Shown here one piece after another: positions 6,895 through 64,000 of a stretch of DNA of 64,000 nucleotides. How positions within the stretch are numbered: position 1 is the stretch's first letter; the number at the start of each line of letters is the position of its first letter. The stretch is from positions 1 to 64,000 of the forward strand of contig CBDCEW010000096.1 in the NCBI GenBank assembly GCA_965215885.1. The letters run 5' to 3'. This stretch comes from Candidatus Moanibacter sp. Lineage in GTDB: Bacteria > Verrucomicrobiota > Verrucomicrobiia > Opitutales > UBA2987. Under the pieces are notes generated by a model that worked only from the letters and a program-made list of their open reading frames with translations, did not search any database and was not told the origin of the DNA. The position numbers were made by a program, and so were the translations under genes.

Positions 6895-6921
6895 ATTTTT
6901 CGTTCTCCGACTTTCCAATTT

Positions 6922-6953
6922 AAAGGAGGCGTCCGTCGTGACGCCTTCTTTTT
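6922..6953 (+). terminator. Rho-independent terminator
   Basis: AAAGGAGGCGTC-loop-GACGCCTTCTTTTT, 28 bp after the receptor stop. Confidence 0.75.
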
Positions 6954-7258: not shown

Positions 7259-7285
7259 TGTTCGTATTTCGCCGAAATACGAACA
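7259..7285. repeat. 27-bp perfect palindrome, copy 1
   Basis: TGTTCGTATTTCG-C-CGAAATACGAACA; second copy at 51566-51592. Confidence 0.85.
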
Positions 7286-13944: not shown

Positions 13945-14264
13945 TCATTGTTTACGTGTTCCTTGTTATGGATCCGGCTCAGAAAAAGGCGCTGGAGCAG
14001 GGCCTCACTCCTGAGAGGGCCGAGATCATTGCCTGGCAGGCCGGCCTCGTCGCCTGTCTGGGTTCCGGTCTCATCGAATTCTTCGGCGCCTTTGTCGTGG
14101 AACATATTCGGAAATTTACTCCGCGCGCCGCTCTCCTGGCCGCTCTTGCCGGTATCGGCATAGCGTTTGTCGGGATGGATTTTGTTTTGCGAAGCTATTC
14201 CTATCCTCTCATCGGATTTACCCCCATTGCGCTGACCCTGGTAATCTACTTCGGTCGCGTGAAG

Positions 14265-14356
14265 AGTAAAGATCCTCGGGGCAAGCCCCGAGGCATTTGA
14301 TATTAGACTTTATGAATTAGAAACGAAGCAAGCTTCGGGGAATTAAACCCGAAGCG
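14265..14356. mobile_element. 92-bp hairpin element (IS200/IS605-like non-autonomous, PATE-type), copy 1
   Basis: Hairpins CCTCGGGGCAAGCCCCGAGG and CGAAGCAAGCTTCG; followed by ATTAAA; interrupts the permease. Confidence 0.85.
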
Positions 14357-44639: not shown

Positions 44640-44640
44640 G

Positions 44641-45743
44641 CCGAAAAGCTACTGATTTACCGCAGTGAACTACGCAATATTTCTTGTAAGATTACTTTGC
44701 CAACATGAGCGACAGATCGGCAAAAGCGATGTCCCTCATTCTCGCAATTTTCTGGATCGTTCGAATTGGCCGGGTTCGTAATCGAGAAGGATCTGGAATC
44801 GAGAAAGAAACTTCGATTGGAAGATCGCACTTTGAAGGGCGCACAGCGGATACTGGCGTGAATCTTGGGGCAGGCCGGCCGCGGACGGCTTATGCGGTAT
44901 ACGTGTTCGTGATGATTCAGGGTTTTCTCTCTCGATGAGCTTGTTGCCCGGCTGATCCGTGAACCTGGTCGCTCAGCTGAGGACGACAGATTGGGGCTCC
45001 AGGAGCATGGGACGATTTCTCGACAGCACCTCGGTCTTCCGATGGGAGATTCTGAGCGGTCTTTTGATGCGGGCCAATCTCTTATTTTCGCAAGGGATGG
45101 GTTGATAATCCAAGCGAGTTTCAGATTTGTCTGGCCGCGGGCAAACCGAAGTCGAGGGCAGGAAACATCGGTTGCTCAAGCGGGGCCGCAAGGCGGCCGA
45201 ACTAACGGGGGAACTGCCATCTTGAAGAGGGCCTGTCGATTGCCTCCCACTCGCGTAGCCATCGCCAAGCGGGTTGTTGAGTATGCTCATGATATCAAAT
45301 CGGCCGACATAGGGCAGCCGGGCGAACGTTTGCCTGACGTAACTCTGAGCTGGCGCCGGCCATCGGAGATGATCAAGCGCACCTGTCATTGCTCGCCGCG
45401 ATGACGGATATCGGCGCGATGCTGAGCCTGGGGGTGCAGAACGAAGGGCAAGAAGTTGGTCTTGGCGTATCGCGAGGCACGGCTCCGCAGTGGAGTCGCG
45501 TTCATGGCGAATCGGCCGCCGATCGATGCGGTAGGCGATGAACGTCATAATGGCTTCTGCCGCATCGGATCTGGTGGACGGAACAGGCAGCCCGCTGACC
45601 GCTTTGAAGCTCAGAGAAAAAAGCACCACGGGATGAGTATGCCTACCAGTTTCAAGCGTGCAAATATACGTATTGTGCAGCAAGTCCCACGCCGATGGCA
45701 TTCGTCTCAATACCTGCTCAGCCGGCAGCGATGCGGCAGCCTA
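44641..45743 (+). mobile_element. Multiply deleted relic of the 10233-12149 IS, inverted
   Basis: Collinear near-identical blocks such as CCGAAAAGCTACTGAT, GATTCTGAGCGGTCTTTTGATGCGGGCCAATC and CTGACCGCTTTGAAGCTCAGAGAAAAAAGCACCACGGGATGAGTATGCC. Confidence 0.85.
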
Positions 45744-46726
45744 CAAGAGCGTCATCACCAACATGCTCACATCAGGGCCGGCAGGGGCCTATTGGAAGGA
45801 GTATCTAAACTTTTCAAGCAGCAGCGAACATTCATTGCTAACGGCAGCTATGCGCATCCTTTCCGGCGAGTCACGGACAGCGATGGTGATAAGCTGGAGC
45901 AAATGTTCAGAATCGCCTATCCCTGTCACGGAGCAATTGACTACCGACTCCGATTTATCAGCGCGGCCTCGGCCTGAACGGTCTCGCGGCATCCGCCTTG
46001 CAGTGCCAGTGTTATAAAGAAAAATATGAAATAGCCGGGTCCGCGGTTGCTGATGTCGTCGTCAAGAATCGGTCCAATGCGACGGCCAACCCATTGGCTC
46101 ATCTCAGGTTACCGATAACTCGGGAGGAGGTAGATTCTTCTCCTTTTATCGCCTTGCCCTTGAGGCAACTGCAGGTTCCTCCCTATTCGGACGGTGTCTG
46201 CGTTCTAATCGTGGCCACTCCGGAGAGAGCATTGGCACTCACTCCCAATCCATCCTGGATTCAGGGAATGGGTTGGGCCTCGGATACCTACTGGATGGGC
46301 GATCGTCCCCTGGTGCAACTCACCTCTCTGAAAATTGCAGCCAATCAGGCCTATGCGATGGCCCAAATCGGAAACCCCGCCGAAGAGATCGATGTCTCCG
46401 AAGTTCACGACACGACCGCCTATCACGAGCTTATGGCATATGAAGCCCTTGGATTTTGTGACGAAGGTAAAGGAGCCGAATTCATGCTTTCCGGCTCCAC
46501 GCGGAAAAGCGGCACGCTCCCGGTCAATCCTTCAGGGGGCGCACTCTCCTCGAACCCCGTTTTCGCCACCGGCCTGGTGCGGGTAGCAGAGGCCGCTCTT
46601 CAAGTCATGGGTAGAGCCGGTGAACGTCAGATTCCGGATGTTGAAAGGGCCCTGGCTCATGCCACCCATGGATTCGCTTCCCAGGGAAACTCAGTTTTTA
46701 TCCTCGGAAACGAGCCACTCTCATGA
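45744..46726 (+). pseudogene. SCP2/Ltp-type thiolase-like protein, 5'-truncated and frameshifted near 45950
   Basis: KNRSNA..NP.AH, SEVHD, PVNPSGG, TGLVRVAEA; N-terminal part in another frame abuts the IS relic. Confidence 0.75.
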
Positions 46727-47913
46727 GCGCGGGAAAAGTGGCAGTCATTGGCAGCGGCCAGACAGTTTACAGCTCCCGAAGCGAGTTCACTTATCCTGAA
46801 CTCGTGGAGCAGGCAACGAGCGCGGCTCTAGCCCAGGCCGAACTCACTATTGATGACATCGATGCCGTCGTCTTCGCGCTCGCACCGGACGCCCTCATAG
46901 GAGTCAACCATGGCGAGCGCTGGTGCGTCGACGCAATTGGAGCTCAGGGAAAACCATTTATGCGCGTAAACACAGGTGGCAGCACCGGCATGTCCGCGTT
47001 TCTCGCCGGATATTTTCATGTCGCGTCAGGACTTTTCCGGCGAGTCCTGGTGTCAGGTGCCGATCGCGTTGGGGAGAGCGGCGATTCTCAACAGATTCTC
47101 AACAAAATGTGGGACAAAAACTACGAGCGTCCCCTCCCCTTAAACGCCATCAATATGCTGGCCCTTCAGGCAACTCGCTACATGCATCGTTACGATGTCA
47201 CGGAAGAGCAAACTTCCCTCGTCTCGGTCCACGCTCACAAAAACGGGATGAATAATCCTCTCAACCAGATTCGTGTGGAGGTCTCCATCGAGGATGTCAT
47301 GAATTCTCGCCCAATTTGCTGGCCGATCAAACTTTACGACGCCTCCCCCGCATCGACCGGTGGGTGTGCCGTCCTCCTCGCCGCCGAGGCAGAAGCCGAG
47401 AGCGGCCCGTTGCCACCTGTCTGGGTTCGGGCTGTATCTCACGTAGCCGACACCTATTACATCGGCGACCGCATGGGACCTGCCGCCGTGAGCGATTATG
47501 CCGATTGCGATGCTCAGGCCGAATCTACGCGAAGGGCCTATCGCATCGCTGGCATCACTAACCCGCGGAAACAATTCGATGTAGCAGAGCTCTACTATCC
47601 TTTCAGCTGCGTCGGACTCCACATGGTCGAGGCCGTCGGTCTCGCCGAAAAGGGTAAGGCCCACAATCTGTTTGAAGAAGGAGTTTTCGATATGAACGGC
47701 GAGATCCCAGTCAACCCCTCGGGAGGTCTCCTCTGCGCACACCCTATCGCCGTGACTGGCCTCGTCCGGGTTGCCGAAGCCGCCTTGCAACTCCAGGGTC
47801 GCGCCGGTCAGCACCAGGTACCTGGTGCCAAAACCGCTCTCACCACCGGTATCGGCGGTACCCACGAATTCTATGGCACCGTAATACTCGGGGTCAGTCC
47901 TGAATGGCGCTAA
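46723..47913 (+). CDS. SCP2/Ltp-type thiolase-like protein (non-canonical, possible retro-aldolase)
   Basis: NTGGSTG lacks the thiolase Cys; AELYYPF, PVNPSGG, HPIAVTG; last 3 residues come from the IS. Confidence 0.85.
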   Translation: MSAGKVAVIGSGQTVYSSRSEFTYPELVEQATSAALAQAELTIDDIDAVVFALAPDALIGVNHGERWCVDAIGAQGKPFMRVNTGGSTGMSAFLAGYFHVASGLFRRVLVSGADRVGESGDSQQILNKMWDKNYERPLPLNAINMLALQATRYMHRYDVTEEQTSLVSVHAHKNGMNNPLNQIRVEVSIEDVMNSRPICWPIKLYDASPASTGGCAVLLAAEAEAESGPLPPVWVRAVSHVADTYYIGDRMGPAAVSDYADCDAQAESTRRAYRIAGITNPRKQFDVAELYYPFSCVGLHMVEAVGLAEKGKAHNLFEEGVFDMNGEIPVNPSGGLLCAHPIAVTGLVRVAEAALQLQGRAGQHQVPGAKTALTTGIGGTHEFYGTVILGVSPEWR

Positions 47914-47987
47914 GATAAGCCAAAAATAATTGTAAAAAATATGTAAAAAAGCTTGTACTATGACCGTTAGTAGACTAATCTTGTTGT

Positions 47988-48997
47988 ATGAAAAATATGA
48001 CAAGATTCCTGCCTGGGTTTAATCACATTCTATGCGGTCGCCCGCCTAAGTCGGCCCTGGCACAAGTAAAGATCCTCGGGGCAAGCCCCGAGGCATTTGA
48101 TATTAGACTTTATGAATTAGAAACGAAGCAAGCTTCGGGGAATTAAACCCGAAGCGATTAAAAAACCATGAAAGCGGCATTTTGCGCAAATTCGTTGGGT
48201 ATTTGAAAAAAGCAGAGGTGGTTCTGTGCGACCGCGGTTATTGCTCTTATGCCAATCTGGGGCTGCTTCTAAACCATCAAATGGACGCGGTCATGCGCCT
48301 GCACCAAAGGCGCAAATGCGACTTCCGTAGCGGCCAAACACTGGGCCGATACGATCGGCTGGTGACCTGGAAAAAACCGCAGAGACAGCACGGGTTCAGC
48401 CCGGAAGAATGGGCTCAATTACCGGCCGAACTGACTCTGCGAATGGTGCGTTTCTTCGTTCAGATCAAAGGATTCCGTACCCGAAAGATCGATCTTGTGA
48501 CCACCTTTACCGACCCCCTCCAATACACCGTAGAGGATCTGGCCGATCTCTACTTCCGCCGCTGGTCAGTGGAACTGTTTTTTCGCGACATTAAAACGAC
48601 TATGAAGATGGAAACGGTACGCTGCCTTACTCCCGAAATGGTGCATAAGGAAATCCAGCTGTTCTTTATCGCCTATAATCTCATCCGCGCCCTCATGCAA
48701 CACGCCGCCACCCTCTATCAGCGTGACCTGCATCGGCTCAGCTTCAAGAGCACGGTCGACACCGTTCGGCAGTACTGCACCGCTCTGAACGCCACCCGCA
48801 AGCAACCTCGAAAGCAACAACGCATCATTGACGAGATGGTTCTGATTATTGCCGAGGAGACTGTTCCACTACGAGAACACCGCAGCGAACCACGAGCGGT
48901 CAAACGAAGACCGAAACCTTACCAATTACTAACGAAGCCGCGAGGGAAAATGAAAGTCTCGCGCTCGCGCAGAAACAAAGGCAAAAATCGTCGTTAA
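47988..48997 (+). pseudogene. IS4 transposase missing its N-terminal/central part
   Basis: MKNMTRFLPG...ALA, then the hairpin element, then ...CDRGY...YFRRWSVELFFRDIK; first catalytic Asp region absent. Confidence 0.85.
48065..48156. mobile_element. 92-bp hairpin element copy 3
   Basis: Identical to copy 1; ATTAAA flank. Confidence 0.9.
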
Positions 48998-49114
48998 TCG
49001 GGCTTATCTTAGCGCCATTCGGGTCAGTCCTTGATTCTTGACATTTTTCAATACCTCTGAGCCTTCTTTCCCAATACGAAATCGGAAATGTCAAGAATCA
49101 AGGACTGACCCCGA

Positions 49115-49600
49115 GTGGCTGAAGAACATCCAACCATAGAGCAGCGATGGGACATCACCTACCGCCACTCCACGGGCGAGACTGCGGCCTACTTTTTTGA
49201 GAAACTGAAGGGGAGGCAATTCGTCGGGAAACAGTGTCCGAAGTGCCACAGGGTGCTCATGCCGCCGCGCGCTTTCTGCGACCGATGCCACGCCTCCACG
49301 GAAAAGTGGGTTGACGTAGAATCACACGGAACAATCGAGTCATCCACGATAATCTATCATCCCTTTAAGGGCATGCCGGAAGTCCCCTACGCATTGGCCT
49401 ATGTTCTGCTTCAAAATGCAGGCACAGCCATGTTCAACTTCGTGCGTGGGATTGACCTGACGGAACCGAGGGAGGCGGCCGGAAAACTGGAGATCGGAAC
49501 AAGAGTCAATGTCGCCTTCATCGACCAACCGGAAGGCGCCATGACCGATTTCTGGTACGAGATAGCCACAAAAGAACGCAAAGATCCTAACGCAGCGTAG
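49115..49600 (+). CDS. Zn-ribbon/OB-fold (DUF35/ChsH2-like) protein
   Basis: CPKC...PPRAFCDRC, VPYALA. Confidence 0.85.
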   Translation: MAEEHPTIEQRWDITYRHSTGETAAYFFEKLKGRQFVGKQCPKCHRVLMPPRAFCDRCHASTEKWVDVESHGTIESSTIIYHPFKGMPEVPYALAYVLLQNAGTAMFNFVRGIDLTEPREAAGKLEIGTRVNVAFIDQPEGAMTDFWYEIATKERKDPNAA

Positions 49601-49743
49601 CCGCAAAGAAGAAGAGAACCGCAGATGCACGCGAATGGACACGAATCACTCTCCAGACAAAGCCAAATTTCGAATTTGTCCGTTCCGACACCTTCCCTGA
49701 ATCACTCTTTTTTTGCGTTCTCTGCGTTCTTTCGTGGCTATGA

Positions 49744-51354
49744 TTAGATACCGTCTAAGCTTTCGCCCTGCTTCTTCAGACGCGAAATAAACCACTCCTG
49801 AAGCCCCCTCTTATTGACTTTCCCCGTATCGGTCAGTGGCATCTCCTCGTTGGTCATAAACGCGAATTGAGCCGGCACCTTATAAGCCGCCAACTCCGTC
49901 CGGCAAAATTGCCGCAATTCATCCACTGTCATTTGATCTCCCTCCCGGAAAACAACGGCAGCCGCCAGCACTTCATCTTTCTCCGAATCCGGAATACCCA
50001 CAACAATAGCCTGATCGATACTGGAGCAGGATAGCAGGACCTCCTCGACCTCAGCCGGCGCCACGTTTATGCCCCCGGTCTTCACCATTTCTTTGATCCT
50101 CCCGCGGAAGTGAAGATAACCTGCCTTATCAAAAAGGCCGAGATCGCCGGTGAGAAAGAATCCTTCTTTATCGAATGGAGAGTGTGACGAATTTTCGGGA
50201 CGGTGGTAGCCTTTCGTCACGTAACCGCGAATTTTGATCTCACCGACATCACCTTGCGCTAACGGACGGTGTGTTTGTGGATCGGCGATGACAACTTCGG
50301 TCCCCGGGAGCGGCCTGCCACAAGTGCGGGTACGGATCTCAGGGGAATCCCTACCGTCATTAACGGTGCTGTTGCCATAGCACTCTGTTAAACCGTAACA
50401 ACTCGCCACTTCCGTGGCCCCCAGTTCAATCAAATGGGGTACCGCTGGTGGCAGGGTAAGACCGCTTCGCAGGCTGGAGAGATCCCGCCCACCGCGTCCC
50501 GCGCACCCGTGCAAGGCAAGCGCCATATTCGGTACCGCGTAAAGCGCGGTGCAATGCTCGCGCTTGATCAGCATTAATGCTTCCTCGGGATCAAAACGAT
50601 GCTGCAGGACAATGCTGCTCCCATGCGTCATCACCGCAAAGAGCGCATTTCCACAAGCAAAAATCCAAAACAGTGATACGCCAAGCAGCATGCGGTCTTT
50701 TTCCGTCAGGTGCATGCGTTCACCGATTCCGTGCATATTCTCAATCAGCCCGTAATGCTGAACTGGCACCGCCTTAGGCCACGCCGTCGAGCCGGACGTA
50801 TACAACAGGTAGGCAACGTCGCCCGGTTCGACCGTCTCTTGAATCTGATCGATTACGCTGTCCGGGATGTCTTTTCCAAGCTCCCATATTTCCGCGAGCG
50901 AACGTATTCCAGGGCGCTCTCCACCACCCAGGCACACAATTTCGCGCAATTTTGGCACCGCCTCGTTGCGATTTTCCATATTCTGCACCATCGCCAGATA
51001 ATCGTGCTTTAGATAGCGATCGACCAGGACGAGCACCGAGGCTTCCGCATGAGCCAGAGCGTAATGCAACTCCCTCTGTCGCCACCAGGTATTCAGCCCA
51101 AGGAGCGTGCCTCCCAGCATGGTCACGGCAAAATCGACCAGAAGCCACTCCGTCTGGTTTCCCATCAGAAGCGCCACCGTCTCCCCCTTCTTGACCCCAA
51201 TTCTGTAAAACCCCTTGCCCAGATCACGCACCCGGTGTCGAAACTCCGAGTATATTAATCGCTCGTCGCCATAAACCAGAAATTCACGCTCCGGGTACCT
51301 CCGGACCATCTCGTCGAGCAATCCTGGCATAGTGCGACTATCCGGCATTCTCAT
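49744..51354 (-). CDS. AMP-forming acyl-CoA synthetase
   Basis: YTSGSTAWPK, YGLTE, TGDLG, GKV. Confidence 0.9.
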   Translation of the reverse strand: MRMPDSRTMPGLLDEMVRRYPEREFLVYGDERLIYSEFRHRVRDLGKGFYRIGVKKGETVALLMGNQTEWLLVDFAVTMLGGTLLGLNTWWRQRELHYALAHAEASVLVLVDRYLKHDYLAMVQNMENRNEAVPKLREIVCLGGGERPGIRSLAEIWELGKDIPDSVIDQIQETVEPGDVAYLLYTSGSTAWPKAVPVQHYGLIENMHGIGERMHLTEKDRMLLGVSLFWIFACGNALFAVMTHGSSIVLQHRFDPEEALMLIKREHCTALYAVPNMALALHGCAGRGGRDLSSLRSGLTLPPAVPHLIELGATEVASCYGLTECYGNSTVNDGRDSPEIRTRTCGRPLPGTEVVIADPQTHRPLAQGDVGEIKIRGYVTKGYHRPENSSHSPFDKEGFFLTGDLGLFDKAGYLHFRGRIKEMVKTGGINVAPAEVEEVLLSCSSIDQAIVVGIPDSEKDEVLAAAVVFREGDQMTVDELRQFCRTELAAYKVPAQFAFMTNEEMPLTDTGKVNKRGLQEWFISRLKKQGESLDGI

Positions 51355-51565
51355 GGCTGATCCTCCAATCGCAGATACATGTCGATGATCGGGGGCTTTT
51401 CATCCGCCTCCCCATTGCCAATCGCACACCAGATTATGTTCAAAACCAAACAAATTTCCCGTGTTCGTTTCATCTTACCCATTTCTCCTTTGATCAACAG
51501 AACTGCAACAGCGCATCGAGACAAGCAAGGACCAATCGAACCGGCCTTCGATTCTTTAGATTCTA

Positions 51566-51592
51566 TGTTCGTATTTCGGCGAAATACGAACA
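51566..51592. repeat. 27-bp perfect palindrome, copy 2
   Basis: TGTTCGTATTTCG-G-CGAAATACGAACA. Confidence 0.85.
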
Positions 51593-51978
51593 AACACCTG
51601 AAACGCTCAAACAGAAGATCCTTCCGATCGGTCAGATAGCCGCGTATGCCTGAACTTTCAGGCCTGACGGCTTCAAGTCAGCGGAGTCCCGGTGCGCACG
51701 ACGCGGCCCGATCAAACAGGGGTGAAACTTGCGGCGTCCAGGAAGACGAAAAGCTTCCGCTTTCCGCGACACCCTTCGAGCCGGATAGTAGTAGCGGAAA
51801 GCGGAAGCTTCTCGTCCCTGTTGCCACCCAATTAAGCCATTATAAGCCGCCCGCCAACCAGTTAATTACCGTAAGACTGTCGAACGGCATGGACATTAAA
51901 GCTCCAAGTCAAATTGGCCGATGCAACCCGAGCTAGCCCGAACATCTCACTACCGATTCCGCATCAGCGACAGACATC

Positions 51979-53226
51979 CTAGAGATTTCCCGACTCCTGG
52001 GTAAACCGTACCGGCATCCTCTTAATACCACCGTGGTGATAGGAGAGCAGGCGCTCAGGCGGTGCGGTTACTTCGATGTCGGGGAGGCGCCGGAATAAAT
52101 CCGTGAAAAGGATGCGCATCTCCAGTTCCGCCAACCTCGCCCCGACACAGAAATGCTGGCCGGCCCCAAATGCGAGATGGGTGGGCCCTTCGCGCGTCAT
52201 GTCAAACTTGAATGGATCTTCGAATATCTCTTCGTCCCGGTTTCCTGAAAGGTACCACAGGACAACTTTGTCTCCCTGCCGAATTTTCTTTCCCCGGATT
52301 TCCGTATCTGCGATCGCTGTGCGCCTCATATAATATACCGGTGTCACCCATCGGAGAATCTCATTTACCGCTCCTGTAACGAGGGAGGGGTCATCGAGAA
52401 GCCGTTGGCGTTGGTCGGGGTTTTCCGATAGGGCAAGAAGCCCACCGGAGATGCCGTTGCGGGTCGTTTCGTTTCCCCCAACCATGAGAAGAATGAACAT
52501 GGCGAGATAGCGTGATTGGCTCATCACTTCATCTTCAACCTTGGTATGAACCATCAGCGAAATTAGATCATCACCTGGATTTTCGAGCCGATCGTTCCAC
52601 AGACTCATGGCGTATTCTCCCATTGGCCTGTACAACTCATCGAGTCCCCCTTTATCGGCTATGATCTCCGGATCGAACTCGCCCACGACAATGTCGGTCC
52701 ACTCCAGCAGTTTATGGCGCTCTTCCTGCGGCATTCCGAAGAGATCCGCCAATACCTGTACCGGAAGTTCCTTGGAGACGCACTCCACGAAATCGCACTC
52801 GCCCCTCTCCGCGATCTGATCGATCAGGAACGTAACTCTGGTCTGAATCGGTTCCTCGAATCCATGCACCCGCCTCGGCGCGAATGCCGGAGCCACCACT
52901 TTTCGATGCTTGTTATGTTCCGGAGGATCCATGTTGAGGAGTTGGTAATCCTGGTTGCCGATTGTATCCGTCGGCACGTCCTGTAGAAAGAATCCGCCGT
53001 ACTTCAAATCAGATGAGAATTCCTTCGGATTCTTAGAAACGGCCGTGATGTCTTCGTACTTCGTGATCGACCAATATCCACGGCCGCTCTCTTCCTGCGT
53101 CCAGTGCACCGGATCTTCACTTCTCAAACGCGCGAAGATCTGGTGAATCGTATCATCGAGATACAACTCCGGATCAGCCAGACATACTTGATCGAGATTT
53201 AGCTCTTTTACTTTTTTAGAGATCAT
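51979..53226 (-). CDS. Cytochrome P450 (CYP125/CYP108-like)
   Basis: MDPPEH, GGNETTRN, EILR, HLAFGAGQHFCVG; start approximate. Confidence 0.9.
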   Translation of the reverse strand: MISKKVKELNLDQVCLADPELYLDDTIHQIFARLRSEDPVHWTQEESGRGYWSITKYEDITAVSKNPKEFSSDLKYGGFFLQDVPTDTIGNQDYQLLNMDPPEHNKHRKVVAPAFAPRRVHGFEEPIQTRVTFLIDQIAERGECDFVECVSKELPVQVLADLFGMPQEERHKLLEWTDIVVGEFDPEIIADKGGLDELYRPMGEYAMSLWNDRLENPGDDLISLMVHTKVEDEVMSQSRYLAMFILLMVGGNETTRNGISGGLLALSENPDQRQRLLDDPSLVTGAVNEILRWVTPVYYMRRTAIADTEIRGKKIRQGDKVVLWYLSGNRDEEIFEDPFKFDMTREGPTHLAFGAGQHFCVGARLAELEMRILFTDLFRRLPDIEVTAPPERLLSYHHGGIKRMPVRFTQESGNL

Positions 53227-53297
53227 TTTCAAATTAGCGGGGCCGCCCACGCGTTATGGCTTACAAGATCAAAAGGGTGTGAAACTTCCGACAGGAA

Positions 53298-53369
53298 AGT
53301 GGGACAGGCTTCCAGCCTGTCGAAAGTCGTAGCAGGCATCCGCCGACAGGCTGGAAGCCTGTCCCACTC
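53298..53369. repeat. REP doublet (REPIN-like)
   Basis: AGTGGGACAGGCTTCCAGCCTGTCG ... CGACAGGCTGGAAGCCTGTCCCACT. Confidence 0.8.
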
Positions 53370-53708
53370 ATGCAATTCCTCTGTAAAGAAATCGATAATC
53401 ATTCGCCCGAAAACCCCCGGCTTGCCGAGGTGAGCACTGTCGAACTCGGTGAAAACCGTGAGCCTGTCCGACGCAGTACACTCATTTTTCTACACCGATA
53501 TATGACCAGAGAATAGTAGATTCTCACCGCCCAGATCAAACTGATCAACGCTACAAATGTCACGTCTGAATTTTCAGGCTGGAATTCGGTTCGGCTGGTA
53601 TGCTTTGGGACCGTCCAATCAGTCGAGACCTCCGGCATGCTTCGGTTATTCAATAGCCTCTCCCAGAAGTAGATCGATTAGCTATTGAACAATCCGATTA
53701 TAATATCC

Positions 53709-53800
53709 AGTAAAGATCCTCGGGGCAAGCCCCGAGGCATTTGATATTAGACTTTATGAATTAGAAACGAAGCAAGCTTCGGGGAATTAAACCCGAAGCG
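53709..53800. mobile_element. 92-bp hairpin element copy 4
   Basis: Identical to copy 1; ATTAAA flank. Confidence 0.9.
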
Positions 53801-53823
53801 ATTAAATAAGACCCCGGTGAACG

Positions 53824-54698
53824 ATGAAGAATTTGTCGATAGTCGAATCCGCCCGCACTTCACGATCCTCCAGGATTCCCAACACCCGCCTCAAGCGGAT
53901 GCTCGCCGTTATTCTCGTTTCCCTCAAACGGTCGAAAAGCGCCGGTGCCTTCTACCTGAATTTTATAAAGCGGCTCCTCGACGGGGTTCTCGCTTCTGTC
54001 CTTCGCAATAAACCTGCTTTCGCGATGGCCGCCGCCGCCGCGTTCACGGTCAACCTCCCGCCACCGCTTTACGCAGTGGATGTCCCCTTCGGCGCCCAAC
54101 AGGTAATCAGCCTGGCGGATGGCGCCACCTTCGCCTTTGCCGTGGACGGGGATGGGGACATCGACGCGCTCTCGGCCTCGTTTCGTGACGACAAGATCGT
54201 CTGGTTTGACAATACCAATGGGGTTGGAACCGCCTGGACGGCTCGAACCATTACGCCCGCGGCGGATTACGCCTACTCCGTCTTTGCCGGGGACGTGGAC
54301 GGGGATGGGGACATCGACGCACTCTCGGCTTCCCGTAATGACGATAAGATCGTCTGGTATGAGAATACGAATGGGGTTGGAACAGCCTGGACGCCTCGAA
54401 CCATTGCGACCGGGGCGGATTTCGCGTTCTCCGTCTTTGCCGCGACGTGGACGGGGATGGGGACCTCGACGCCCTCTCGGCCTCTACTTATGACGATAAG
54501 ATCGCCTGGTATGAGAATACCAACGGGGTTGGAACAGCCTGGACGGCTCGAACCATTACGACCGGGGCGGATTACGCCTACTCCGTTTTGCCGCTGACGG
54601 GGACGGTGACGGGGACATCGACACGCTCTCGGCCTCGCTTTCTGACGACACGATCGCCTGGTTTGAGAACCGTGGAGGACAGTTTGGCCTCACGACCA
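53824..54698 (+). pseudogene. FG-GAP/VCBS repeat protein, frameshifted and truncated by IS1380
   Basis: Four ~150-bp repeats encoding DVDGDGDIDALSAS..DDKI.WYEN; frame breaks near 54440 and 54590. Confidence 0.85.
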
Positions 54699-56552
54699 CT
54701 AATCCTAAAATAAGCGCGTTTAAAGGTTGAACAGGAAACTTCGTTATTCCTAACGTTATTTGCCATGCTGGCGGTAGTTTTGCCGCCGCCACCCTTGGGC
54801 TGGTTTCATGTTTTGCTTTTTTTGAGTCATATCCGTTCTGTTTTAACGTTAGTTCTGTCCCCTTTTTTGGATACGCCGACAGTCCTTCCGTTGTGGCTGT
54901 GCGTTCGCGGTTACTTGATCTGCTACCCAGGCGACATAGATCGGAATCGCTCCCAGGTGCTGATAAAATCTCCCATCCACTCGTTCCAGCTTAAAAGCCG
55001 ATAAACAATTCGGCGCCCGCTTCGGATGATTTGCGCGGGGAGCAAGATGATGGCGTGAAGGAAGCGCCGAAACTCCATCTTCACGATCTCCAACCCCCGC
55101 TGGCGGTTGGGCATGAGTAATCCATACCACGCCTTCAGGTTCCAGGCCAATGCTGTCATTACCATATAGGCCCAATTGCTCAAAAGATCATCCACGGGCA
55201 TACGCATCGCATTAACCCCGTTTTTGAGTTGCTCAATAACGTTCTCCTGATCGCAGCGTTGATTCGCAAAGGCGACCACCTGCTCCTTAGTCAGGTCCCT
55301 ACGATTTGTGATATAAAAAAAGTAGCGGATCTCATCAAAGAGCACTACTTCGCCCTTTTGCACACTGATGTTCTTACGCACCACCACCATCCGATAGGTC
55401 TTTTTGCACTTGTTGGGCCGATAGTCCAACTCGGCCACACTTTCTGCCTCCAGCACCTTGTTTTCAAAACCCTTCTGGTGCACGATCCCTTCCTTCACTC
55501 GCGGCGCTTTAGCTCTCGATTCGGTCGCTATTTCATGCTTGGGCAACCGCTCCAGTTCGCTCCAGGCCGTCTCTCTGAACTCCTCGGCCAGTCCCACCAC
55601 TTTGGGATGCGCATCCATTCCGAAGATAAATCCCGTTCCTTCTTCATCCCACCGATCGAAGTTTTCTGTCAACGAAAAGTCCGTATCCCCTCGCAAGCAG
55701 ATTTTCCCCGCATGCGCACGCACAAGTTCCACCGCCCGATCAATCCACTTTACGCATCCCTCATGGCTAGTCTCATTGCCCGGTCGATTCACCATGTAGA
55801 GCACTTCCCTGGTATTTGCCAAACTCACGATCAGCGGTGCATAGCCCCAGATCCCCTTATAGCTTATTCCCATACCCCCTTTGCACTTCCCTCTCGTCTG
55901 CGCTATCGTCCCGTCCACATCGATGAACGCCTCCTCCATGAATCCTTTTGCCTGCTTGTTCCACACCCCTTGCCGTATCCGGTTGATCCCTTCCATCAAT
56001 TTTTCGATCGCGCCTTCATCAAAGCGTCGGGTGAAGTCTCCACTGGTCGTCGGATCCGGTATCCTCTGCGCTCCTAAGGCATTCAGAAAAACCTCGTCCT
56101 TGCGGCGCAATTCGATGTCTTCGAGCCGGATCCCTCCCAATAATGCGTTGTAGGCTATGTTGAGCACATGATCACTCTCATGATACGGCAGGTGGCGCTT
56201 GAGCAACTGCACGCTCTGGTCGAGCTCTTCCACCAACCCCAGTCTCTTCACCATCAGGTGAATCGCTCCTATCCCTCCACAACTCACCCCTTTGCCTCGT
56301 TCGGCCGTCTCGTAGTGGATGTTGCTCGCTTTGAACATCGGTTTGGCCTGTTCAGGCCAGCCCCGATTTCTAAGCCGATGCTTTATTCTTCTCTTGCTAT
56401 TGTGGAGGTTCTTGCGGTATCTTCTTTTCACTCGAAACGTCCTTTTTTCTGGGTGGTTTTTTTGGTCGATTAACAGTTTTCCCAGTATCTAAGCGCGTTT
56501 CGAGCTTTTTATTGCGTTAGGTATATTCCAATCACACTTGTTCGAGGTCTAG
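54699..56552 (-). mobile_element. IS1380-family element; no TSD seen
   Basis: Imperfect TIR CTAATCCTAAAATAAGCGCG versus CTAGACCTCGAACAAGTGTG; unrelated broken genes on the two sides. Confidence 0.75.
54923..56431 (-). CDS. IS1380-family transposase
   Basis: PDPTTSGDF, IDVDGT, LRGDTDF, RCDQENVIEQLK. Confidence 0.9.
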   Translation of the reverse strand: MKRRYRKNLHNSKRRIKHRLRNRGWPEQAKPMFKASNIHYETAERGKGVSCGGIGAIHLMVKRLGLVEELDQSVQLLKRHLPYHESDHVLNIAYNALLGGIRLEDIELRRKDEVFLNALGAQRIPDPTTSGDFTRRFDEGAIEKLMEGINRIRQGVWNKQAKGFMEEAFIDVDGTIAQTRGKCKGGMGISYKGIWGYAPLIVSLANTREVLYMVNRPGNETSHEGCVKWIDRAVELVRAHAGKICLRGDTDFSLTENFDRWDEEGTGFIFGMDAHPKVVGLAEEFRETAWSELERLPKHEIATESRAKAPRVKEGIVHQKGFENKVLEAESVAELDYRPNKCKKTYRMVVVRKNISVQKGEVVLFDEIRYFFYITNRRDLTKEQVVAFANQRCDQENVIEQLKNGVNAMRMPVDDLLSNWAYMVMTALAWNLKAWYGLLMPNRQRGLEIVKMEFRRFLHAIILLPAQIIRSGRRIVYRLLSWNEWMGDFISTWERFRSMSPG

Positions 56553-58919: not shown

Positions 58920-58972
58920 CATGGAAGCATCCGGTGTATAGCAAGAAGCGTGCACCACCCCGGCGCAAGACC

Positions 58973-60346
58973 CATAAGCGCTAACTTGTTTGCTGACCTG
59001 GGAATCTGACCTCTAACTGTGGTCGGCGTTGCCGTGGAGACTCTGCTAAGCCTTGAGCTATATCGTTCCAATTTTCTATCACTTGTCGCAAAGGCACAGC
59101 GGGATCGACGGCCCGCTGGAGTTGATGGAAGACGAAGGCAAACTCACGCCATCGACTCTGCTGTTTTTTCCGGCTCCAGGACATATCCCCAGGGGGAAAT
59201 AGAGATCGCACTTTGAATGATCTTCTCGGTGATCAGGGCCGCGAAGAGCTTGCCATAGAGCCACGCCTTGGCGCTTTCATCGTCATACTTAGGCAGATGT
59301 CCTAACTGTGCGATCTGTTTGAATCGTTTGAAGACCAGTTCCACCTGCCAGCGGATACGATACCATTCGAGCACCTCCAGTGCGGAAAAGAGCGATTCAG
59401 GAAAAGTCGTCAGCACCATGACGTATTCGGCGTAATAGAGCGTTTCGGGCATCAGCTTCTCGCCCCGCCTGCTGGCGATTCGCCGCAATCTCTTGTGGGC
59501 CATGGCGATCGCTTGCTCGCTTTTGCGGATGGCACACACCCGCGCTGGCAACGGGGGCTGATCCGATGCGGGCACCATGACTGGCCAAGCGCCCACCTTG
59601 CCACCGGCCCCGATCTGCTCCAGGCAGGCGGTCAGGTTCAGAACCTCTCCCCGAGGATCGAGCAGCCGTATGTTGTGCGGTGCCAGCCGTATACTTACAA
59701 AAGCCCCTTGGGAGGCTGCATATTGAAGCCCGGAAGCCTGGCAGTATCCCCGATCGGCGATCACGTAGTCACCTGCTGCCAGCGGAAACTGTCTAAGCGA
59801 CTCGCCGGTGCCTTCACCTTGCGCTGGCGTAAGTTTGAAAAAATCGCACGCCATCGAAGGAACTCGCAAGCTATAGTGCACACGCCACAAGCTGCCCGTC
59901 TTCCCGGGTTCCTTCACCATCGTCGCATCGATCAGACGAAACTCCCGTTGCCCCACCGCCCCCAAATCCAGGCCACGCTCGCGAAACAATGCCACGCACA
60001 GCGAATAAAGCCAGTCCTTGCACTTGCGCAGCCGCTTCAGCAACGCTACGTCTGACAGTTCCGCCAACTGCGCCTGGCGCGCACGCACCACGGTTTCGCG
60101 CAGCGAATACCCACATGCCAGGTGCACCATCAGAATCCTCAGCAACTTCCCAGGTGCCTTGTCCCGGCGCAATCCCTTCAACGCGTTGGTCTTCTTAGCC
60201 AATTCTTTCCATTGCGGCGGGAAAAAAGACATCAGCACGCTCCAGTCTTCATCCATCATGGTCGACCTCCCTTCAATTCTGCTAACCTGTTGCGGAAGTC
60301 CACAGCAGGAAATGCACTATGTCAAGCAAACAAGTTAGCGCTTATG
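58973..60346 (-). mobile_element. IS4-family element with an 11-bp TSD
   Basis: TIR CATAAGCGCTAACTTGTTTGC; GGCGCAAGACC at 58962-58972 and 60347-60357. Confidence 0.95.
59144..60259 (-). CDS. IS4-family transposase
   Basis: IDAT, ADRGY, YRIRWQVELVFKRFK. Confidence 0.95.
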   Translation of the reverse strand: MMDEDWSVLMSFFPPQWKELAKKTNALKGLRRDKAPGKLLRILMVHLACGYSLRETVVRARQAQLAELSDVALLKRLRKCKDWLYSLCVALFRERGLDLGAVGQREFRLIDATMVKEPGKTGSLWRVHYSLRVPSMACDFFKLTPAQGEGTGESLRQFPLAAGDYVIADRGYCQASGLQYAASQGAFVSIRLAPHNIRLLDPRGEVLNLTACLEQIGAGGKVGAWPVMVPASDQPPLPARVCAIRKSEQAIAMAHKRLRRIASRRGEKLMPETLYYAEYVMVLTTFPESLFSALEVLEWYRIRWQVELVFKRFKQIAQLGHLPKYDDESAKAWLYGKLFAALITEKIIQSAISISPWGYVLEPEKTAESMA

Positions 60347-60430
60347 GGCGCAAGACCGGGGCAGCCGGCAATCGAATGCAGGACGCTAAACAGGTACGGA
60401 CGTTACGTCCGACAGAAAACTGAGGTAGTC

Positions 60431-60436
60431 CGTCAA
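60431..60436 (-). promoter_or_regulatory. -35 box of the IS110 circle-junction promoter (-10 TATAGT at 62110-62115)
   Basis: Joining the ends at CT gives TTGACG-N17-TATAGT. Confidence 0.8.
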
Positions 60437-60467
60437 GGGATTTTTTGAGTTTTTTCTCATGTTGTGT

Positions 60468-61778
60468 TTACAAGGCGTTGGCATTTGCTTGCTGAAGTCT
60501 TTTCCACACCGGTGAACCGGTGCGTTGGAGCGATTGGAGATACTTTTGCTCATCGTAGCGTTCGCTATTTTGCCAACAGCGAAACAGAATGCGGGTCCAC
60601 TTGAGAGCGAGGGCACGAAGAATGGTTTGGCGGGGTTTGCCCTGTTCTTTTTTGATCTGGTAAAAGGCCTTTGCCCAGGCACAGTTTCGGATCGAATGTT
60701 CGGCAAATTCAACGAAACTTTGCCGCACGAAGGTAGGAGCCGCCCACCGCCAGTTGACCATTCGTTTCGGTTGTCCGGTTCTTTTGTCCTGCCCGCTGTT
60801 GATCGTGACCGGAGCGGATCCATTCCACTGGGTCATGTTCTGGGCCGTTTCGAAGTGCGAACGATCGGTCCCGAACGCGCACAGCAACCGGGGACTCATG
60901 ACCTCGCCGGCTCCGGGAATGCCACTGAACACGGCTGCATCGGGATGGCTTCTGAATAGCTCCCTGATACGCTTCTCATACGCTTTGATCTGCGGGCACA
61001 GGGTCAAAAGCTGTCCGGCCAACGTCTGTGCTTTTCTGCTGGATGCTTCAATGATGGCTGCATCTTCGGTCAAGGCTCGTGCGTTACCGATCAATTCGAG
61101 ACGCTCCTGGATTTTGGCGTCACTGCGACAGTTGTGCTTATAGAAGAACTTTCGCAAGACACCCTCCGATGCTCTGTGCAGCTTCTTGAGGGTCGGCCAA
61201 CGCAATATAAAGTGCAGGCACAGGCCACTGCCTAGATCATCGAACAATTTCAAGACCAAAGGGTTATATTGCTTCAGACAACTGCCCAACTGCTGTTCGA
61301 GGCTGGTAGCCTGATCGACGAATCCACGGCGGTCCTCGCACAACAGGTTCAGCTCCCGTGTTTGGGCCGTGTCAGGTATGAAACATTTGGTAAAAAGCTC
61401 GGGATGTTTGAGGAAAAACTCCGCGTGTATTTGCGCATCGACCGGGTCGCTCTTGGCCCCTGATGGATACAGCGCCCGGCGATAATCCTTCGCCCTGGCC
61501 GCATGCACTGGATAGATATCGACAAACTCCAAGCCCATCAGAAAGTTGATCAACCCTCCTCGCTTCTGGTCCACCACCATGGCCATGCGCTTGCCCACGC
61601 TGGCATACTTTTCTCTCATCTCTACGGCAAATTCGTGCAAGCTGACCGCATCCTGCGCCACCTGTCGATGGGTCCCTTTTCCCGTTTCGCTCTCTATGAT
61701 CCACAGATCGTTTTTCTGATCCGCCCAATCAATTCCTATCACCACACTATATCGATTTGTTTTTTCCCTTTTCTGCAT
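60468..61778 (-). CDS. IS110-family recombinase
   Basis: GIDWAD, KSDPVDA, IPGAG, APVTINSG; intact. Confidence 0.95.
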   Translation of the reverse strand: MQKREKTNRYSVVIGIDWADQKNDLWIIESETGKGTHRQVAQDAVSLHEFAVEMREKYASVGKRMAMVVDQKRGGLINFLMGLEFVDIYPVHAARAKDYRRALYPSGAKSDPVDAQIHAEFFLKHPELFTKCFIPDTAQTRELNLLCEDRRGFVDQATSLEQQLGSCLKQYNPLVLKLFDDLGSGLCLHFILRWPTLKKLHRASEGVLRKFFYKHNCRSDAKIQERLELIGNARALTEDAAIIEASSRKAQTLAGQLLTLCPQIKAYEKRIRELFRSHPDAAVFSGIPGAGEVMSPRLLCAFGTDRSHFETAQNMTQWNGSAPVTINSGQDKRTGQPKRMVNWRWAAPTFVRQSFVEFAEHSIRNCAWAKAFYQIKKEQGKPRQTILRALALKWTRILFRCWQNSERYDEQKYLQSLQRTGSPVWKRLQQANANAL

Positions 61779-61811
61779 CCCTTTGTTCCTTTAGTTTGTC
61801 TTTTTGCTTTT

Positions 61812-62101
61812 TTCAAAGGCACTGGATGTCCAGGCGAAGTCCTTATAGTTGGATCCTGTTATGAGGATGTAAACTGAGTGTTCGTTTTCGGTCATCCAGG
61901 CAGGCCGTCCACTCGAAATTCTGTCGGAAGTCCTCTTCGGACTGATTCCTAAGTTCGTAGTGGACGGCTGCCTTTGAATATTTTCACCCTTAGCCAAACA
62001 ATCTCTTTGACCCATCGCCAACCACTGATCGGCCAAGTTATTCACAAAGGGGCCTCGCCGAGTTTTTCCTGCGGCTCCACTCGGCCCCTTGGATGAATAA
62101 C
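61812..62101 (-). ncRNA. Predicted IS110 bridge RNA: two 5' hairpins, target-binding loop, donor-binding loop
   Basis: Hand-folded stems with internal loops whose sequences match the target flanks and donor junction. Confidence 0.85.
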
Positions 62102-62121
62102 CTGGAGCTACTATAAGATTC

Positions 62122-63270
62122 CTATGGCATTCCAAGCTCCTGACAGAAGGTATTAAAGGGGAGAATGCGTTGTCCCGTTTCTTCGTCACCAAAGTCGTTA
62201 TGACCGATGTGAACGAAGAAGAAACGGGGAATGTCGGTGCGTTGTCTGAAGTATTCAAACCTTGAGGAAGCTTTGGATTCGTTGAGCTTGCATTCTACAG
62301 CGAACTCAGCCTTCCCATCTCTTAATACGACAAAGTCGACTTCTCGTCTATCCGTATCACGGATGAAGCGAAGCTCCATTTCGAAGCCTTCTGTGTCTTC
62401 GATGTAACAGCAGTACTTTAGCAGTTGGCAGGCCACGAGATTTTCAAAACGGGCGCCCGCGTCGGATACTCGAGTCCAATCCCAGAAATAGAGCTTGTTC
62501 TCTTTCTTAACCGCACGGATCTTCTTGTGACCAAAGGGAGGAATACGGAAGACTGTATAGAGCCGCTCCAATATCGAGATCCAGCTCTCTATTGTTTCAT
62601 GGGCTACCCCTAACAGAAGACTGATCGAACGAATCGACAGAGGCGACCCAACACATTCAGGTAGATGATTAAGGAGGAGTTCGATTTTGGATACGTCACG
62701 CACCTGCTCCAATTCTCGCAGATCGTCATACACGACTCTTGCCGTGTATTCACGTAACCATCGTCTATGAAATCTGGCAGTCGCTCTAAATAGTGGTTCG
62801 GGAAACCCTCCAAATGATAGTAGCTGCTCCAGGTCGGAAATGGTAGGGCTTCGAGTGAGTTCCATGAGCGAGAGCGGGAAAAGCCTGAGAAAATGGTAAC
62901 GACCCTGAAGCGAATCACCACCTCTTCGATAGTAGTCGAGACGCGCCGAGCCGGTAACCAGAAATGAGATTTTGCTCTTATGTTTGTCGTAGTACCCCTT
63001 GACTAGATTTCGCCAACCTCCGAATTTGTGAATTTCGTCAAATATGACCAATGGCTGCTTCGATGGTAGATGGCCGTCGAGAATGCGCTTTCGGTCAGCC
63101 AGCGAATCCCAGCTGAGGTAGGCAGGATGAGATTCTTTTGCGTTTTCCGGCCGGAGACATTGCAGGGCCAAGGTTGTCTTACCCACTTGGCGTGGCCCTC
63201 CCACAATGACCATTCTGTTTTCCAAATCGGCTTTGACTGCTTCCAAGAGATATCTCTTAACTGGAATCAT
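62122..63270 (-). CDS. AAA+ ATPase (AAA_14 with DUF4143-type C-terminus)
   Basis: GPRQVGKTT, FDEIH, TGSA, SLQGR, EVDFV...VECK. Confidence 0.9.
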   Translation of the reverse strand: MIPVKRYLLEAVKADLENRMVIVGGPRQVGKTTLALQCLRPENAKESHPAYLSWDSLADRKRILDGHLPSKQPLVIFDEIHKFGGWRNLVKGYYDKHKSKISFLVTGSARLDYYRRGGDSLQGRYHFLRLFPLSLMELTRSPTISDLEQLLSFGGFPEPLFRATARFHRRWLREYTARVVYDDLRELEQVRDVSKIELLLNHLPECVGSPLSIRSISLLLGVAHETIESWISILERLYTVFRIPPFGHKKIRAVKKENKLYFWDWTRVSDAGARFENLVACQLLKYCCYIEDTEGFEMELRFIRDTDRREVDFVVLRDGKAEFAVECKLNESKASSRFEYFRQRTDIPRFFFVHIGHNDFGDEETGQRILPFNTFCQELGMP

Positions 63271-63537
63271 AGTATGAGTAATTTCGAAACCACTCTAAGA
63301 TACTCATGAGTAATTTAGAGTAAAGTCTAAAATACCCATGCTATCCATCTGTGCAGACCCTGGAAGAGTTATGTTCTCGGGGTCTGCCAGAGATCGTCGA
63401 ATCGGAAGCCTGTCCTGAGCCAGTCGAATGAATAAACCCCTTTCCCGGCCTGAGCTTGTCGAAGGCCTACACGTGTGGCGGATGATAACGGCACTTGCGC
63501 TTACTGACCGGCAACCTCAATTTCATCGGATCGAGCC

Positions 63538-64000
63538 ATGATTAAACCATTCGCAAACGAAGCAGGAACCAACCGTGTCAACATCACCGTAGACGGCCTT
63601 AACCCGGATGCTCCCGTGCCGGTTCCCGTGCGGTGCGGAGTTCCCCTCCCGAAGGGTCGGATTACGGATCCATCGCAGATCGCTCTGCGGGATGAGGCAG
63701 GACAACCCGTCCCTTTTCAACCCGTGGTGACCGGGTATTGGCAGGATGAATCGCTGAAATGGGTGAACTTGGGATTTTTGGCAGAGGGCGCTTCTTACGT
63801 TGCCGAGATCGGAACCGAAAACGTCGAGGATATCGACGAGTCGCGTATTGTGGTGGAAGAGAGCGATGAGGCGATCGCCATATCCACCGGCCCGCTCAAA
63901 CTCGAAGTTCCGACGACGGGCGCGACCTGTTTCCCCGGCCGGGTCTGGATCGACCGCGACGGGGACGGGGTATTCTCCGACGCCGACTTGGTGAACGAGG
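63538..64000 (+). CDS. Hypothetical protein, N-terminus resembling YetA/exo-rhamnogalacturonan-lyase-like proteins; runs off the window
   Basis: Manual translation ...PVRCGVPLPKG...YWQDESLKWV...ISTGPLKLEV. Confidence 0.55.
   Translation, partial: MIKPFANEAGTNRVNITVDGLNPDAPVPVPVRCGVPLPKGRITDPSQIALRDEAGQPVPFQPVVTGYWQDESLKWVNLGFLAEGASYVAEIGTENVEDIDESRIVVEESDEAIAISTGPLKLEVPTTGATCFPGRVWIDRDGDGVFSDADLVNE

Follow-up and report, generated by a model that had tools for sequence, protein, structure and literature searches.

Organization of the locus

The window analyzed here is a stretch of 64,000 nucleotides from Candidatus Moanibacter sp., a member of the Verrucomicrobiota (GenBank assembly GCA_965215885.1, contig CBDCEW010000096.1). 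From 62115 to 60414 its minus strand carries an element of the IS110 group of insertion sequences, which is 1702 bp long when the right-hand copy of its CT core is included. The element encodes a recombinase of the DEDD/Ser type behind a long non-coding left end, and its right end is 54 nt. The left end contains a candidate bridge RNA: two stem-loops whose internal loops hold four guide words that match the insertion site and the joined ends of the element (Table 1). Terminal inverted repeats are absent, CT stands at both junctions, and a long left end is combined with a short right end, as in the IS110 group. On the evidence of its sequence, the element is an intact, recently active and autonomous insertion sequence of this group.

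At the left junction, TAGGAAT-CT in the flank is followed by TATAGT (62124-62110), and the element starts with TATAGTAG. At the right junction, the element ends in CTCAGTTTT-CT (60424-60414), and GTCGGA follows in the flank (60424-60408 for the whole junction). Removal of the element together with one CT restores TAGGAAT-CT-GTCGGA. The stop codon of the gene upstream, which encodes an AAA_14/DUF4143 ATPase (63270..62122, minus strand), is the TAG that forms the first three bases of TAGGAAT.

In the genome (6.36 Mb in 105 contigs), the element occurs as 10 full copies, as a piece of the right end at the edge of a contig and as two fragments. Each full copy has 1702 bp, with 0-3 differences from the window copy, none of which lies within the stem-loops. 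The only base private to the window copy is 62002, between the 5' hairpin and the target stem-loop, which on the element strand is A in the window and T in the other nine copies and in 4/4 public runs examined. Nine of the 10 copies are flanked by [C/T/A][T/C]AGGAAT-CT ... CT-GTCGG[A/T]. Two shorter sequences, a 210-bp internal fragment that is 97% identical (L012, G000 C99:54428-54638) and an 86-bp piece that is 77% identical to the start of the left end (L013, G000 C6:7714-7799), are, as far as their sequences tell, remnants of older or related copies.

The 13-mer of the empty site, AGGAATCTGTCGG, has 256 exact, uninterrupted occurrences in the 6.36-Mb genome and 465 with at most one mismatch, where simple arithmetic for a 13-mer on both strands gives a chance expectation of about 0.2. 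It often lies within palindromes of the form AGGAATCTGTCGGAC...GTCCGACAGATTCCT, so many units present the target on both strands. With 256 genomic occurrences, the target is an abundant repeat resembling repetitive extragenic palindromic (REP) sequences, and the empty site as reconstructed does exist in this genome, where it is common.

Table 1. Positions of the element, its insertion site, the parts of its left-end RNA and its recombinase gene in the window. LTG and RTG, left and right target guides; LDG and RDG, left and right donor guides; TBL and DBL, target-binding and donor-binding stem-loops.
Feature	Position	Strand	Remarks
Whole IS110-group element	60414..62115	-	1702 bp; flanks differ between copies beyond these ends
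CT core copies	right 60415-60414; left 62117-62116	-	same dinucleotide at both junctions
Non-coding left end	62115-61779	-	337 nt
Recombinase gene (open frame)	60468..61778	-	436 aa; DEDD RuvC-like domain, coiled coil with inserted helical bundle, Tnp domain with Ser328-Gly329
Left target half TAGGAAT	62118..62124	-	identical to LTG positions 1-7; AGGAAT invariant in 9/10 copies
Right target half GTCGGA	60408..60413	-	reverse complement of RTG; GTCGG invariant in 9/10 copies
Left-end terminus TATAGT	62110..62115	-	right donor half read by RDG, and -10 hexamer of the predicted junction promoter; kept across homologues
Right-end terminus	60416..60436	-	TTGACG (predicted -35 hexamer, 60436-60431) and CTCAGTTTT (left donor half, 60424-60416)
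5' stem-loop of left-end RNA	62035..62103	-	long imperfect hairpin in the fold of the whole left end; GTTATTC arm kept in many homologues
TBL	61899..61972	-	from the fold; 10/12 pairs of basal helix changed on both sides (77 sequences)
LTG UAGGAAUC	61944..61951	-	7 flank bases and core C; 8/8 match
AGUCC/GGACU hairpin of target loop	61943-61929	-	from the fold
RTG word, 9 nt, UCCGACAGA	61928-61920	-	9/9 match
RTG UCCGACAG	61921..61928	-	complement of CT and GTCGGA
Target-loop handshake bases AA	61919..61920	-	complementary to donor positions 7 and 6 (TT)
DBL	61822..61899	-	5/5 pairs of basal helix changed on both sides; inner CGAA/UUCG helix 98% paired
LDG CUCAGUUUAC	61869..61878	-	9/10 to right end CTCAGTTTT and C
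RDG ACUAUAAG	61842..61849	-	complement of CT and TATAGT, 8/8
Donor-loop handshake bases GA	61840..61841	-	pair with target position 7 by a G.T wobble and mismatch position 6 (target AT)

The predicted left-end RNA and its guides

The left end has a strong predicted fold. The minimum free energy (MFE) of a 191-nt stretch is -66 kcal/mol, compared to -41.0 +/- 4.1 kcal/mol in 200 shuffles (z -6.07, no shuffle as good), and that of the whole 337-nt left end is -120.6 kcal/mol (z -6.51). Both folds contain the 5' hairpin followed by the two stem-loops, first the target-binding and then the donor-binding one. In the window element, an outer helix of 10 bp (61978-61969 with 61821-61812) is also predicted to enclose both stem-loops. 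The leader stops 34 nt short of the start codon of the recombinase. In the target loop, the base after UAGGAAUC is A, a mismatch to the core T.

Relatives of the element were sought in 401 genomes of the phylum, including the source genome, of which 17 had a match, the best other one at 44% identity, and in metagenome contigs, where the best 80 of 576 relatives were kept. A tblastn match was found at 98 loci, and 86 of these had 250 nt or more of upstream sequence and an alignment beginning by residue 20; with the window they give 87 upstream regions. The homologues in the covariation tests share 26-47% protein identity. A pattern scan of the genome contigs from a single protein matched 61 stretches, none of which was confirmed as a relative.

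The aligned upstream regions keep the left-end terminus (CT)TATAG, the helices that adjoin the loops (ACGAAY/TTCGAG and AACGAAT/TTCGC) and the donor-guide words CTCAG... and ACTATAAG; CTCAG is kept in both the guide and the right end of the homologues. The two target-guide stretches are the least conserved parts of these regions. An Extended Data legend of PMC11208160 describes the same pattern of kept donor words and variable target guides for relatives of IS621.

The target guides covary with the sequences that flank each element. Guides were taken by alignment anchors and left flanks from the conserved left-end terminus, while right flanks were taken from the right-end motif TTGAC-N7-CTCAG-N4, independently of the target guides. 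Followed by the core, this motif occurs a single time, and with 10 nt or more of flank, at 67 of the 87 loci. The LTG was tested at 53 loci with a 12-nt flank and a left end starting with TAT (48 without repeated guides), and the RTG at these 67 loci (56 without repeated guides). On average, the LTG agrees with its own left flank at 5.0 of 9 positions and with the flanks of other loci at 2.8 (48 loci), and the reverse complement of the RTG agrees with the core and right flank of its own locus at 6.9 of 10 positions and with those of other loci at 3.7 (56 loci); neither result was reached in 10,000 permutations. When three registers are allowed, the LTG matches at 7/8 or better in 27/48 own pairs compared to 14/2256 mismatched pairs. 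The first seven positions of the RTG match at 6/7 or better in 49/56 own pairs compared to 53/3080 mismatched pairs; these positions (the core and five bases) each match in 71-96% of the loci, whereas at positions 8-10 matches are no more frequent than by chance. Most loci have CT as the core, and where the flanks have CC or TG both right-hand guides change too. The RDG likewise tracks the left-end variants TATGG, TACAG, TATCG and TATTG; for example, TATCG is found with ACGATA and TACAG with CTGTA.

The handshake bases, which follow the right-hand guides, covary crosswise. At 89% of 55 loci, the base that follows the RTG can form a Watson-Crick pair with donor position 7 (0/10,000 permutations), compared to only 13% for target position 7. 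Conversely, the base that follows the RDG is complementary in the Watson-Crick sense to target position 7 at 87% of 47 loci (0/10,000 permutations) and to donor position 7 at only 7%. In the IS621 complex described by Hiraizumi et al. (PMC11208158), the bases just 3' of the RTG and RDG pair with the partner duplex after strand exchange.

The stems are kept by compensatory changes. They were assessed by RNAalifold and explicit pair counts on a MAFFT alignment of 77 of the 87 sequences; identical rows, rows outside 130-200 nt and four badly aligned rows (L025, L094, L098 and L110) were excluded. RNAalifold predicted 15 pairs, 14 of them with compensatory changes. In a structure of 21 pairs that comprises the basal and inner helices of the TBL and DBL, 90.6% of the cells are paired, compared to 72.0% in shuffled alignments (0/500 as high) and 31-48% after a shift of the partner by 1-3 columns, and 18 of the 21 pairs have changes on both sides. 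Helix 2 keeps G.U-type pairs (GU:10, UG:15). The 10-bp outer helix was rejected as a feature of the family: at least three enclosing pairs formed in 20/76 MFE folds of homologues and in 23/76 controls in which the first 12 nt were shuffled. Guides, core, handshake bases and stems thus covary in distant homologues, the handshake bases crosswise as in IS621.

The original prediction, made from the letters of the window, had proposed an IS621-like bridge RNA at 61812..61978. The positions and words that it gave for the four guides and the hairpin were all correct on the minus strand, and the matches it counted (8/8, 9/9, 9/10 and 8/8 to the empty site and the circle junction) hold at the junctions of the element. 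The empty site that it had reconstructed is present as 256 exact genomic copies and flanks 9/10 copies of the element. Its two stem-loops with internal loops are borne out by the fold (z -6.07) and by compensatory changes in homologues, and fold and covariation support its assignment of an IS621 architecture, with the target loop before the donor loop and a CT core read by the guides. The span needs a qualification, in that the outer helix which closes it is predicted in the window but is not a feature of the homologues. Whether the loops of homologues covary with their own flanks had been set beforehand as the point on which the prediction turned, and they do (0/10,000 permutations).

The recombinase

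The protein scores above the cut-offs of both Pfam domains of IS110 recombinases: PF01548 (DEDD_Tnp_IS110; 64.5 bits, cut-off 29) over residues 14-173 and PF02371 (Transposase_20; 38 bits, cut-off 21.3) over residues 283-374. Across an alignment of 40 sequences, D17, D111, D114 and G329 do not vary, and conservation of E70 and S328 is 90% or higher. D111 and D114 align with the D-x-x-D of the ISCro4 chain, and S328-G329 with the Ser-Gly of IS621 and ISCro4. The conserved D17/E70/D111/D114 and S328-G329 correspond to the DEDD motif and the Ser-Gly loop of IS621 (PMC11208158). With both domains above cut-off and the catalytic residues present, the recombinase is intact, as had been predicted.

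By sequence, the only relatives with a solved structure are ISCro4 (E 8.8e-5) and IS621 (phmmer E 1.7e-4). An AlphaFold2 model (predicted local distance difference test, 88.9) was used to compare the fold. Every one of the top 10 chains from Foldseek belongs to IS621 or ISCro4 (E from about 1e-12 to 1e-11; 8wt9_A, E 1.9e-12), and by VIA model residues 8-414 superpose on IS621 8wt9_A with Z 20.5 and a root-mean-square deviation of 7.7 (312/319 residues aligned).

That the protein is larger than the 326-residue recombinase of IS621 (PMC11208158) is correct at 436 residues, but the size is usual for its clade. Among 1558 database proteins that match at E <= 1e-30, most of the 119 non-self proteins listed are 418-450 residues long, and the nearest non-self proteins among the matches listed are 79%, 79% and 70% identical. 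The size is thus normal for the clade. By a reading of the model, in which helices 174-232 and 410-435 were set against the IS621 domain limits in PMC11208158, the extra ~110 residues would mostly form a helical bundle between the coiled-coil helices and a C-terminal extension. W194, F211 and R218 within the helical insert are invariant in the 40-sequence alignment.

The coiled-coil and Tnp part of the model (residues ~135-430) also superposes on TIGR-Tas, Nop5/Nop56/58 and Prp31 at Z 12-15, and the recombinase has a weak NCBIfam match to TIGR_Tas_endo. The likeness to TIGR-Tas nucleases and to the Nop5/Nop56/58 box C/D proteins is one of fold only; these are not mobile and have no donor or target loops. 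An evolutionary link between IS110 recombinases and TIGR-Tas/box C/D proteins has been published as a preprint (10.1101/2024.06.21.599552).

The joined ends and possible transcription of the left end

Joining of the ends is predicted to create a promoter that faces the left end and has no counterpart in the integrated copies. In the joined form only, TTGACG (60436-60431) and TATAGT (62115-62110) are separated by a 17-nt spacer. The 10 integrated copies have only 1-4 of 6 matches at the place of the -35 hexamer, and a scan of the integrated element with the sigma-70 consensus gave no site, compared to a shuffle mean of 1.0. TTGACG and TATAGT are the conserved cores of the end motifs of the family. 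A promoter at the joined ends would explain the conservation of the donor ends and, with them, of the donor guides. A sigma-70-like promoter is likewise reported to be rebuilt when the ends of IS621 are joined (PMC11208158). For the window copy, read-through from the upstream ATPase gene, which is co-directional, is also possible.

The element is present in 20 public runs of nine studies. Two RNA-library runs that belong to one study have separate contigs over the left end, at 61829-62062 and 61823-62123, which end 1-7 nt from the base of the donor stem-loop (61822). Word depth over the left end is 21.5 and 13.7 in these runs, compared to 5.9 and 2.6-4.3 over the 5' half of the gene. In run X2, from another sample, a contig joins the left end of the element to a different flank, with its loose end at 62117. 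A different flank in another sample is consistent with movement of the element in the wider population. The flank in this run, ...GGACTTTGAATTC-CT, is the other arm of the same palindromic repeat and fits the LTG at ~6/9; it is likely a relaxed or off-target insertion, as read from its sequence.

Mode of transposition and alternative explanations

We consider it highly probable (roughly 0.93) that the element moves by bridge-RNA-guided recombination like IS621. This mode is indicated by the anatomy of the element, by the way in which guides, core, handshake bases and stems covary and by the modeled fold of the protein, alongside the copy number and the target consensus. By analogy, excision would join the right and left ends through the CT core and set TTGACG 17 nt upstream of TATAGT, and the resulting promoter would transcribe the left end and the recombinase gene. 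The left-end RNA would fold into the 5' hairpin, the target-binding stem-loop and the donor-binding stem-loop, and in the donor loop CUCAGUUUAC and ACUAUAAG would read the joined ends as the guides of the target loop read the target. A tetramer of the 436-residue DEDD/Ser recombinase would then cut beside CT in both duplexes and exchange strands, while the handshake bases next to each right-hand guide would pair with the partner duplex. The outcome would be insertion into the abundant REP-like palindromic repeat. In this scheme the action of the guides as RNA, the chemistry and the circle would be those of IS621.

Several observations do not fit this interpretation easily. One of the 10 copies, L010, lies outside the usual repeat, at a site that does not suit the target loop. 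The LDG mismatches the element's own right end at donor position 7, and the donor-loop handshake bases of the window element offer only a G.T wobble and a mismatch. A scan of 59000-64000 of the window with Rfam at E <= 1 gave no match, although Rfam 15 may hold no bridge-RNA family. Against the NCBIfam model NF033542 (IS110 family RNA-guided transposase), which has a cut-off of 140 bits, the protein reaches 119.2 bits (E 2.1e-34), and the match extends over positions 1-341 of the 343 in the profile. As the protein passes on both Pfam domains and on its fold, the low score indicates a divergent clade and not a non-member. The contigs from RNA libraries give a weak hint of transcription of the left end, as DNA carry-over is possible, depth is per contig and one study is involved. 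Transcript ends, a circle junction and a recombination product were not seen, nor was a joint in the four public runs, which were examined as contigs, a form that loses rare variants.

Covariation reveals base pairing and is blind to RNA versus DNA, and this, together with the weak hint of left-end transcription, could be taken to mean that the guide words act as DNA, with single-stranded hairpins of the left end pairing with the target and the ends like the subterminal guides of IS200/IS605. This is very unlikely, since the protein is an IS110-type DEDD/Ser recombinase with the fold of IS621 and not an HUH transposase, the predicted junction promoter is directed into the left end, and the stems retain G.U-type pairs. 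Moreover, IS621 requires RNA in vitro, and RNA is seen in its cryo-EM complex (PMC11208160, PMC11208158). The element could also be a recently silenced relic whose guides record past insertions and whose movement is stopped by the LDG mismatch or by host factors. A match of only 9/10 between the LDG and the element's own right end would suit a relic, as would the four public runs, in which neither a circle junction nor an empty/occupied polymorphism at one locus was seen. Yet 10 copies with 0-3 differences, an open frame of 436 residues with all catalytic residues present, and another flank in another sample make such a silencing highly improbable. The mismatch is not peculiar to this element either, as several homologues, such as L048 and L058, also mismatch their own right ends at that position.

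It is also conceivable that the four matches arose by chance and that the conserved fold is a 5' untranslated region (UTR) by which translation of the recombinase is controlled. In a leader of 337 nt, words as short as 8-10 nt may turn up again by chance, and this leader ends 34 nt before the start codon. However, the matches are in register within internal loops and track the flanks in ~50 independent homologues (0/10,000 permutations), and a UTR does not account for the crosswise covariation of the handshake bases, which leaves this explanation with hardly any credibility.

An insertion at a donor-like site

L010 (G000 C84:54652-56355, minus strand) is inserted at ...ACACCTCAGTTTA-CT-TATGGGG..., a site that fits the target guides at only 3/8 and 4/8. 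The left side with the core C is the LDG word at 10/10, which makes the left junction a perfect donor look-alike, and the right side fits the reverse complement of the RDG at 6/8. The 11-mer CTCAGTTTACT occurs only twice in the genome. From these matches, L010 is probably a natural insertion chosen by the donor loop, into a site that mimics the joined ends of the element. Such an insertion would be in line with the 'half-match' DBL-DBL activity of IS621 described in a 2026 preprint (10.64898/2026.08.31.748434). A more far-reaching reading, which we regard as doubtful, is that L010 records a half-match DBL-DBL insertion whose site was picked by the donor loop alone, and that its left junction, a standing donor site, could recombine with any of the ~250 target repeats without prior excision and so drive inversions and duplications, among them the inverted duplication of ~13.5 kb on the same contig.

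Contig C84 also contains an inverted duplication of ~13.5 kb, in which 1-15348 corresponds to 43679-55142 in three blocks that are 99.6-99.8% identical. An IS110 copy lies at each outer end, L011 at the contig start and L010 at the other. This duplication may be a real rearrangement or an assembly artefact. The duplicated blocks are broken by a repeat of ~1.9 kb, 97-99% identical, at 5860-7785, 12033-13959 and 70051-71975, which is probably a further insertion sequence.

Comparison with known systems

Bridge RNAs have been known since 2024, when a 177-nt RNA was described for IS621 of Escherichia coli (Durrant et al. 2024, PMC11208160; Hiraizumi et al. 2024, PMC11208158), and the present element is a further example whose differences from IS621 are of degree. 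Both have an RNA-coding long left end and a short right end, and the same order of 5' hairpin, target loop and donor loop; the 5' stem-loop of the IS621 RNA is given in a legend of PMC11208158. They also share a CT core inside the guides, handshake bases after the right-hand guides, a sigma-70-like promoter (predicted here) where the ends are joined, a REP-like extragenic palindromic target, the DEDD and Ser-Gly residues and the same fold (Z 20.5). The proteins, however, are only 16-19% identical over structural alignments and differ in length (436 compared to 326 residues). The guide words are others, and the LTG of the element lacks a match to the second core base. The RTG is effective over the core and five bases in the clade and over the core and six in the window element, and the LDG has the mismatch at donor position 7.

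ISCro4/IS622, a bridge recombinase used in human cells (10.1101/2025.05.14.653916; PDB 9t56), has the same family, fold and two-loop RNA logic but is distant in sequence, at 16-19% identity. ISPpu9 and ISPpu10 of Pseudomonas putida (PMC12288879, 10.64898/2026.03.19.712850) are multi-copy members of the IS110 family that also home to a repeated intergenic palindrome (REP), although in another host lineage and with other guide words. Copies at the borders of large duplications are described for ISPpu10 in P. putida and are found here on contig C84. The IS1111 group, with its seekRNA or right-end bridge RNA, belongs to the same recombinase family and is also RNA-guided; its RNA lies in a long right end that has long subterminal inverted repeats (PMC11208160). 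Membership of the IS1111 group was rejected for the present element: its right end is 54 nt, and the RNA that is structured and covaries is found in its left end, of 337 nt.

Predictions of bridge RNAs cover thousands of IS110 elements and 85.7% of the IS110-group elements of ISfinder (PMC11208160). As most elements of the group are predicted to have one, the find is not unusual. A literature search that paired bridge RNA with Verrucomicrobi found no paper. No new question is opened by the element, which is of value as a clean example and for having supplied the donor-like insertion L010. It offers a fully annotated bridge-recombinase system, with ends, core, four guides, handshake bases, predicted junction promoter and natural target. 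The 10 fresh copies and ~250 natural target sites in one genome are a good data set for rules of target choice and off-target insertion. The rules of IS621, including the crosswise handshake pairing, appear to hold in a distant clade with a longer protein. The recombinase is also a candidate orthologue for the pool that feeds genome-writing tools; 72 orthologues have been screened in human cells (preprint 10.1101/2025.05.14.653916).

Neighboring insertion sequence

A second insertion sequence of 1378 bp lies 60 bp to the right of the IS110 element (58971-60348 of the window). It has perfect terminal inverted repeats of 24 bp and encodes a DDE_Tnp_1 transposase of 371 residues (60259..59144, minus strand). 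There are ~6 copies of it in the genome, and it sits in another repeat family of ~55 nt with at least 35 copies. The locus that holds the IS110 element and the DDE_Tnp_1 element is an insertion hot spot.

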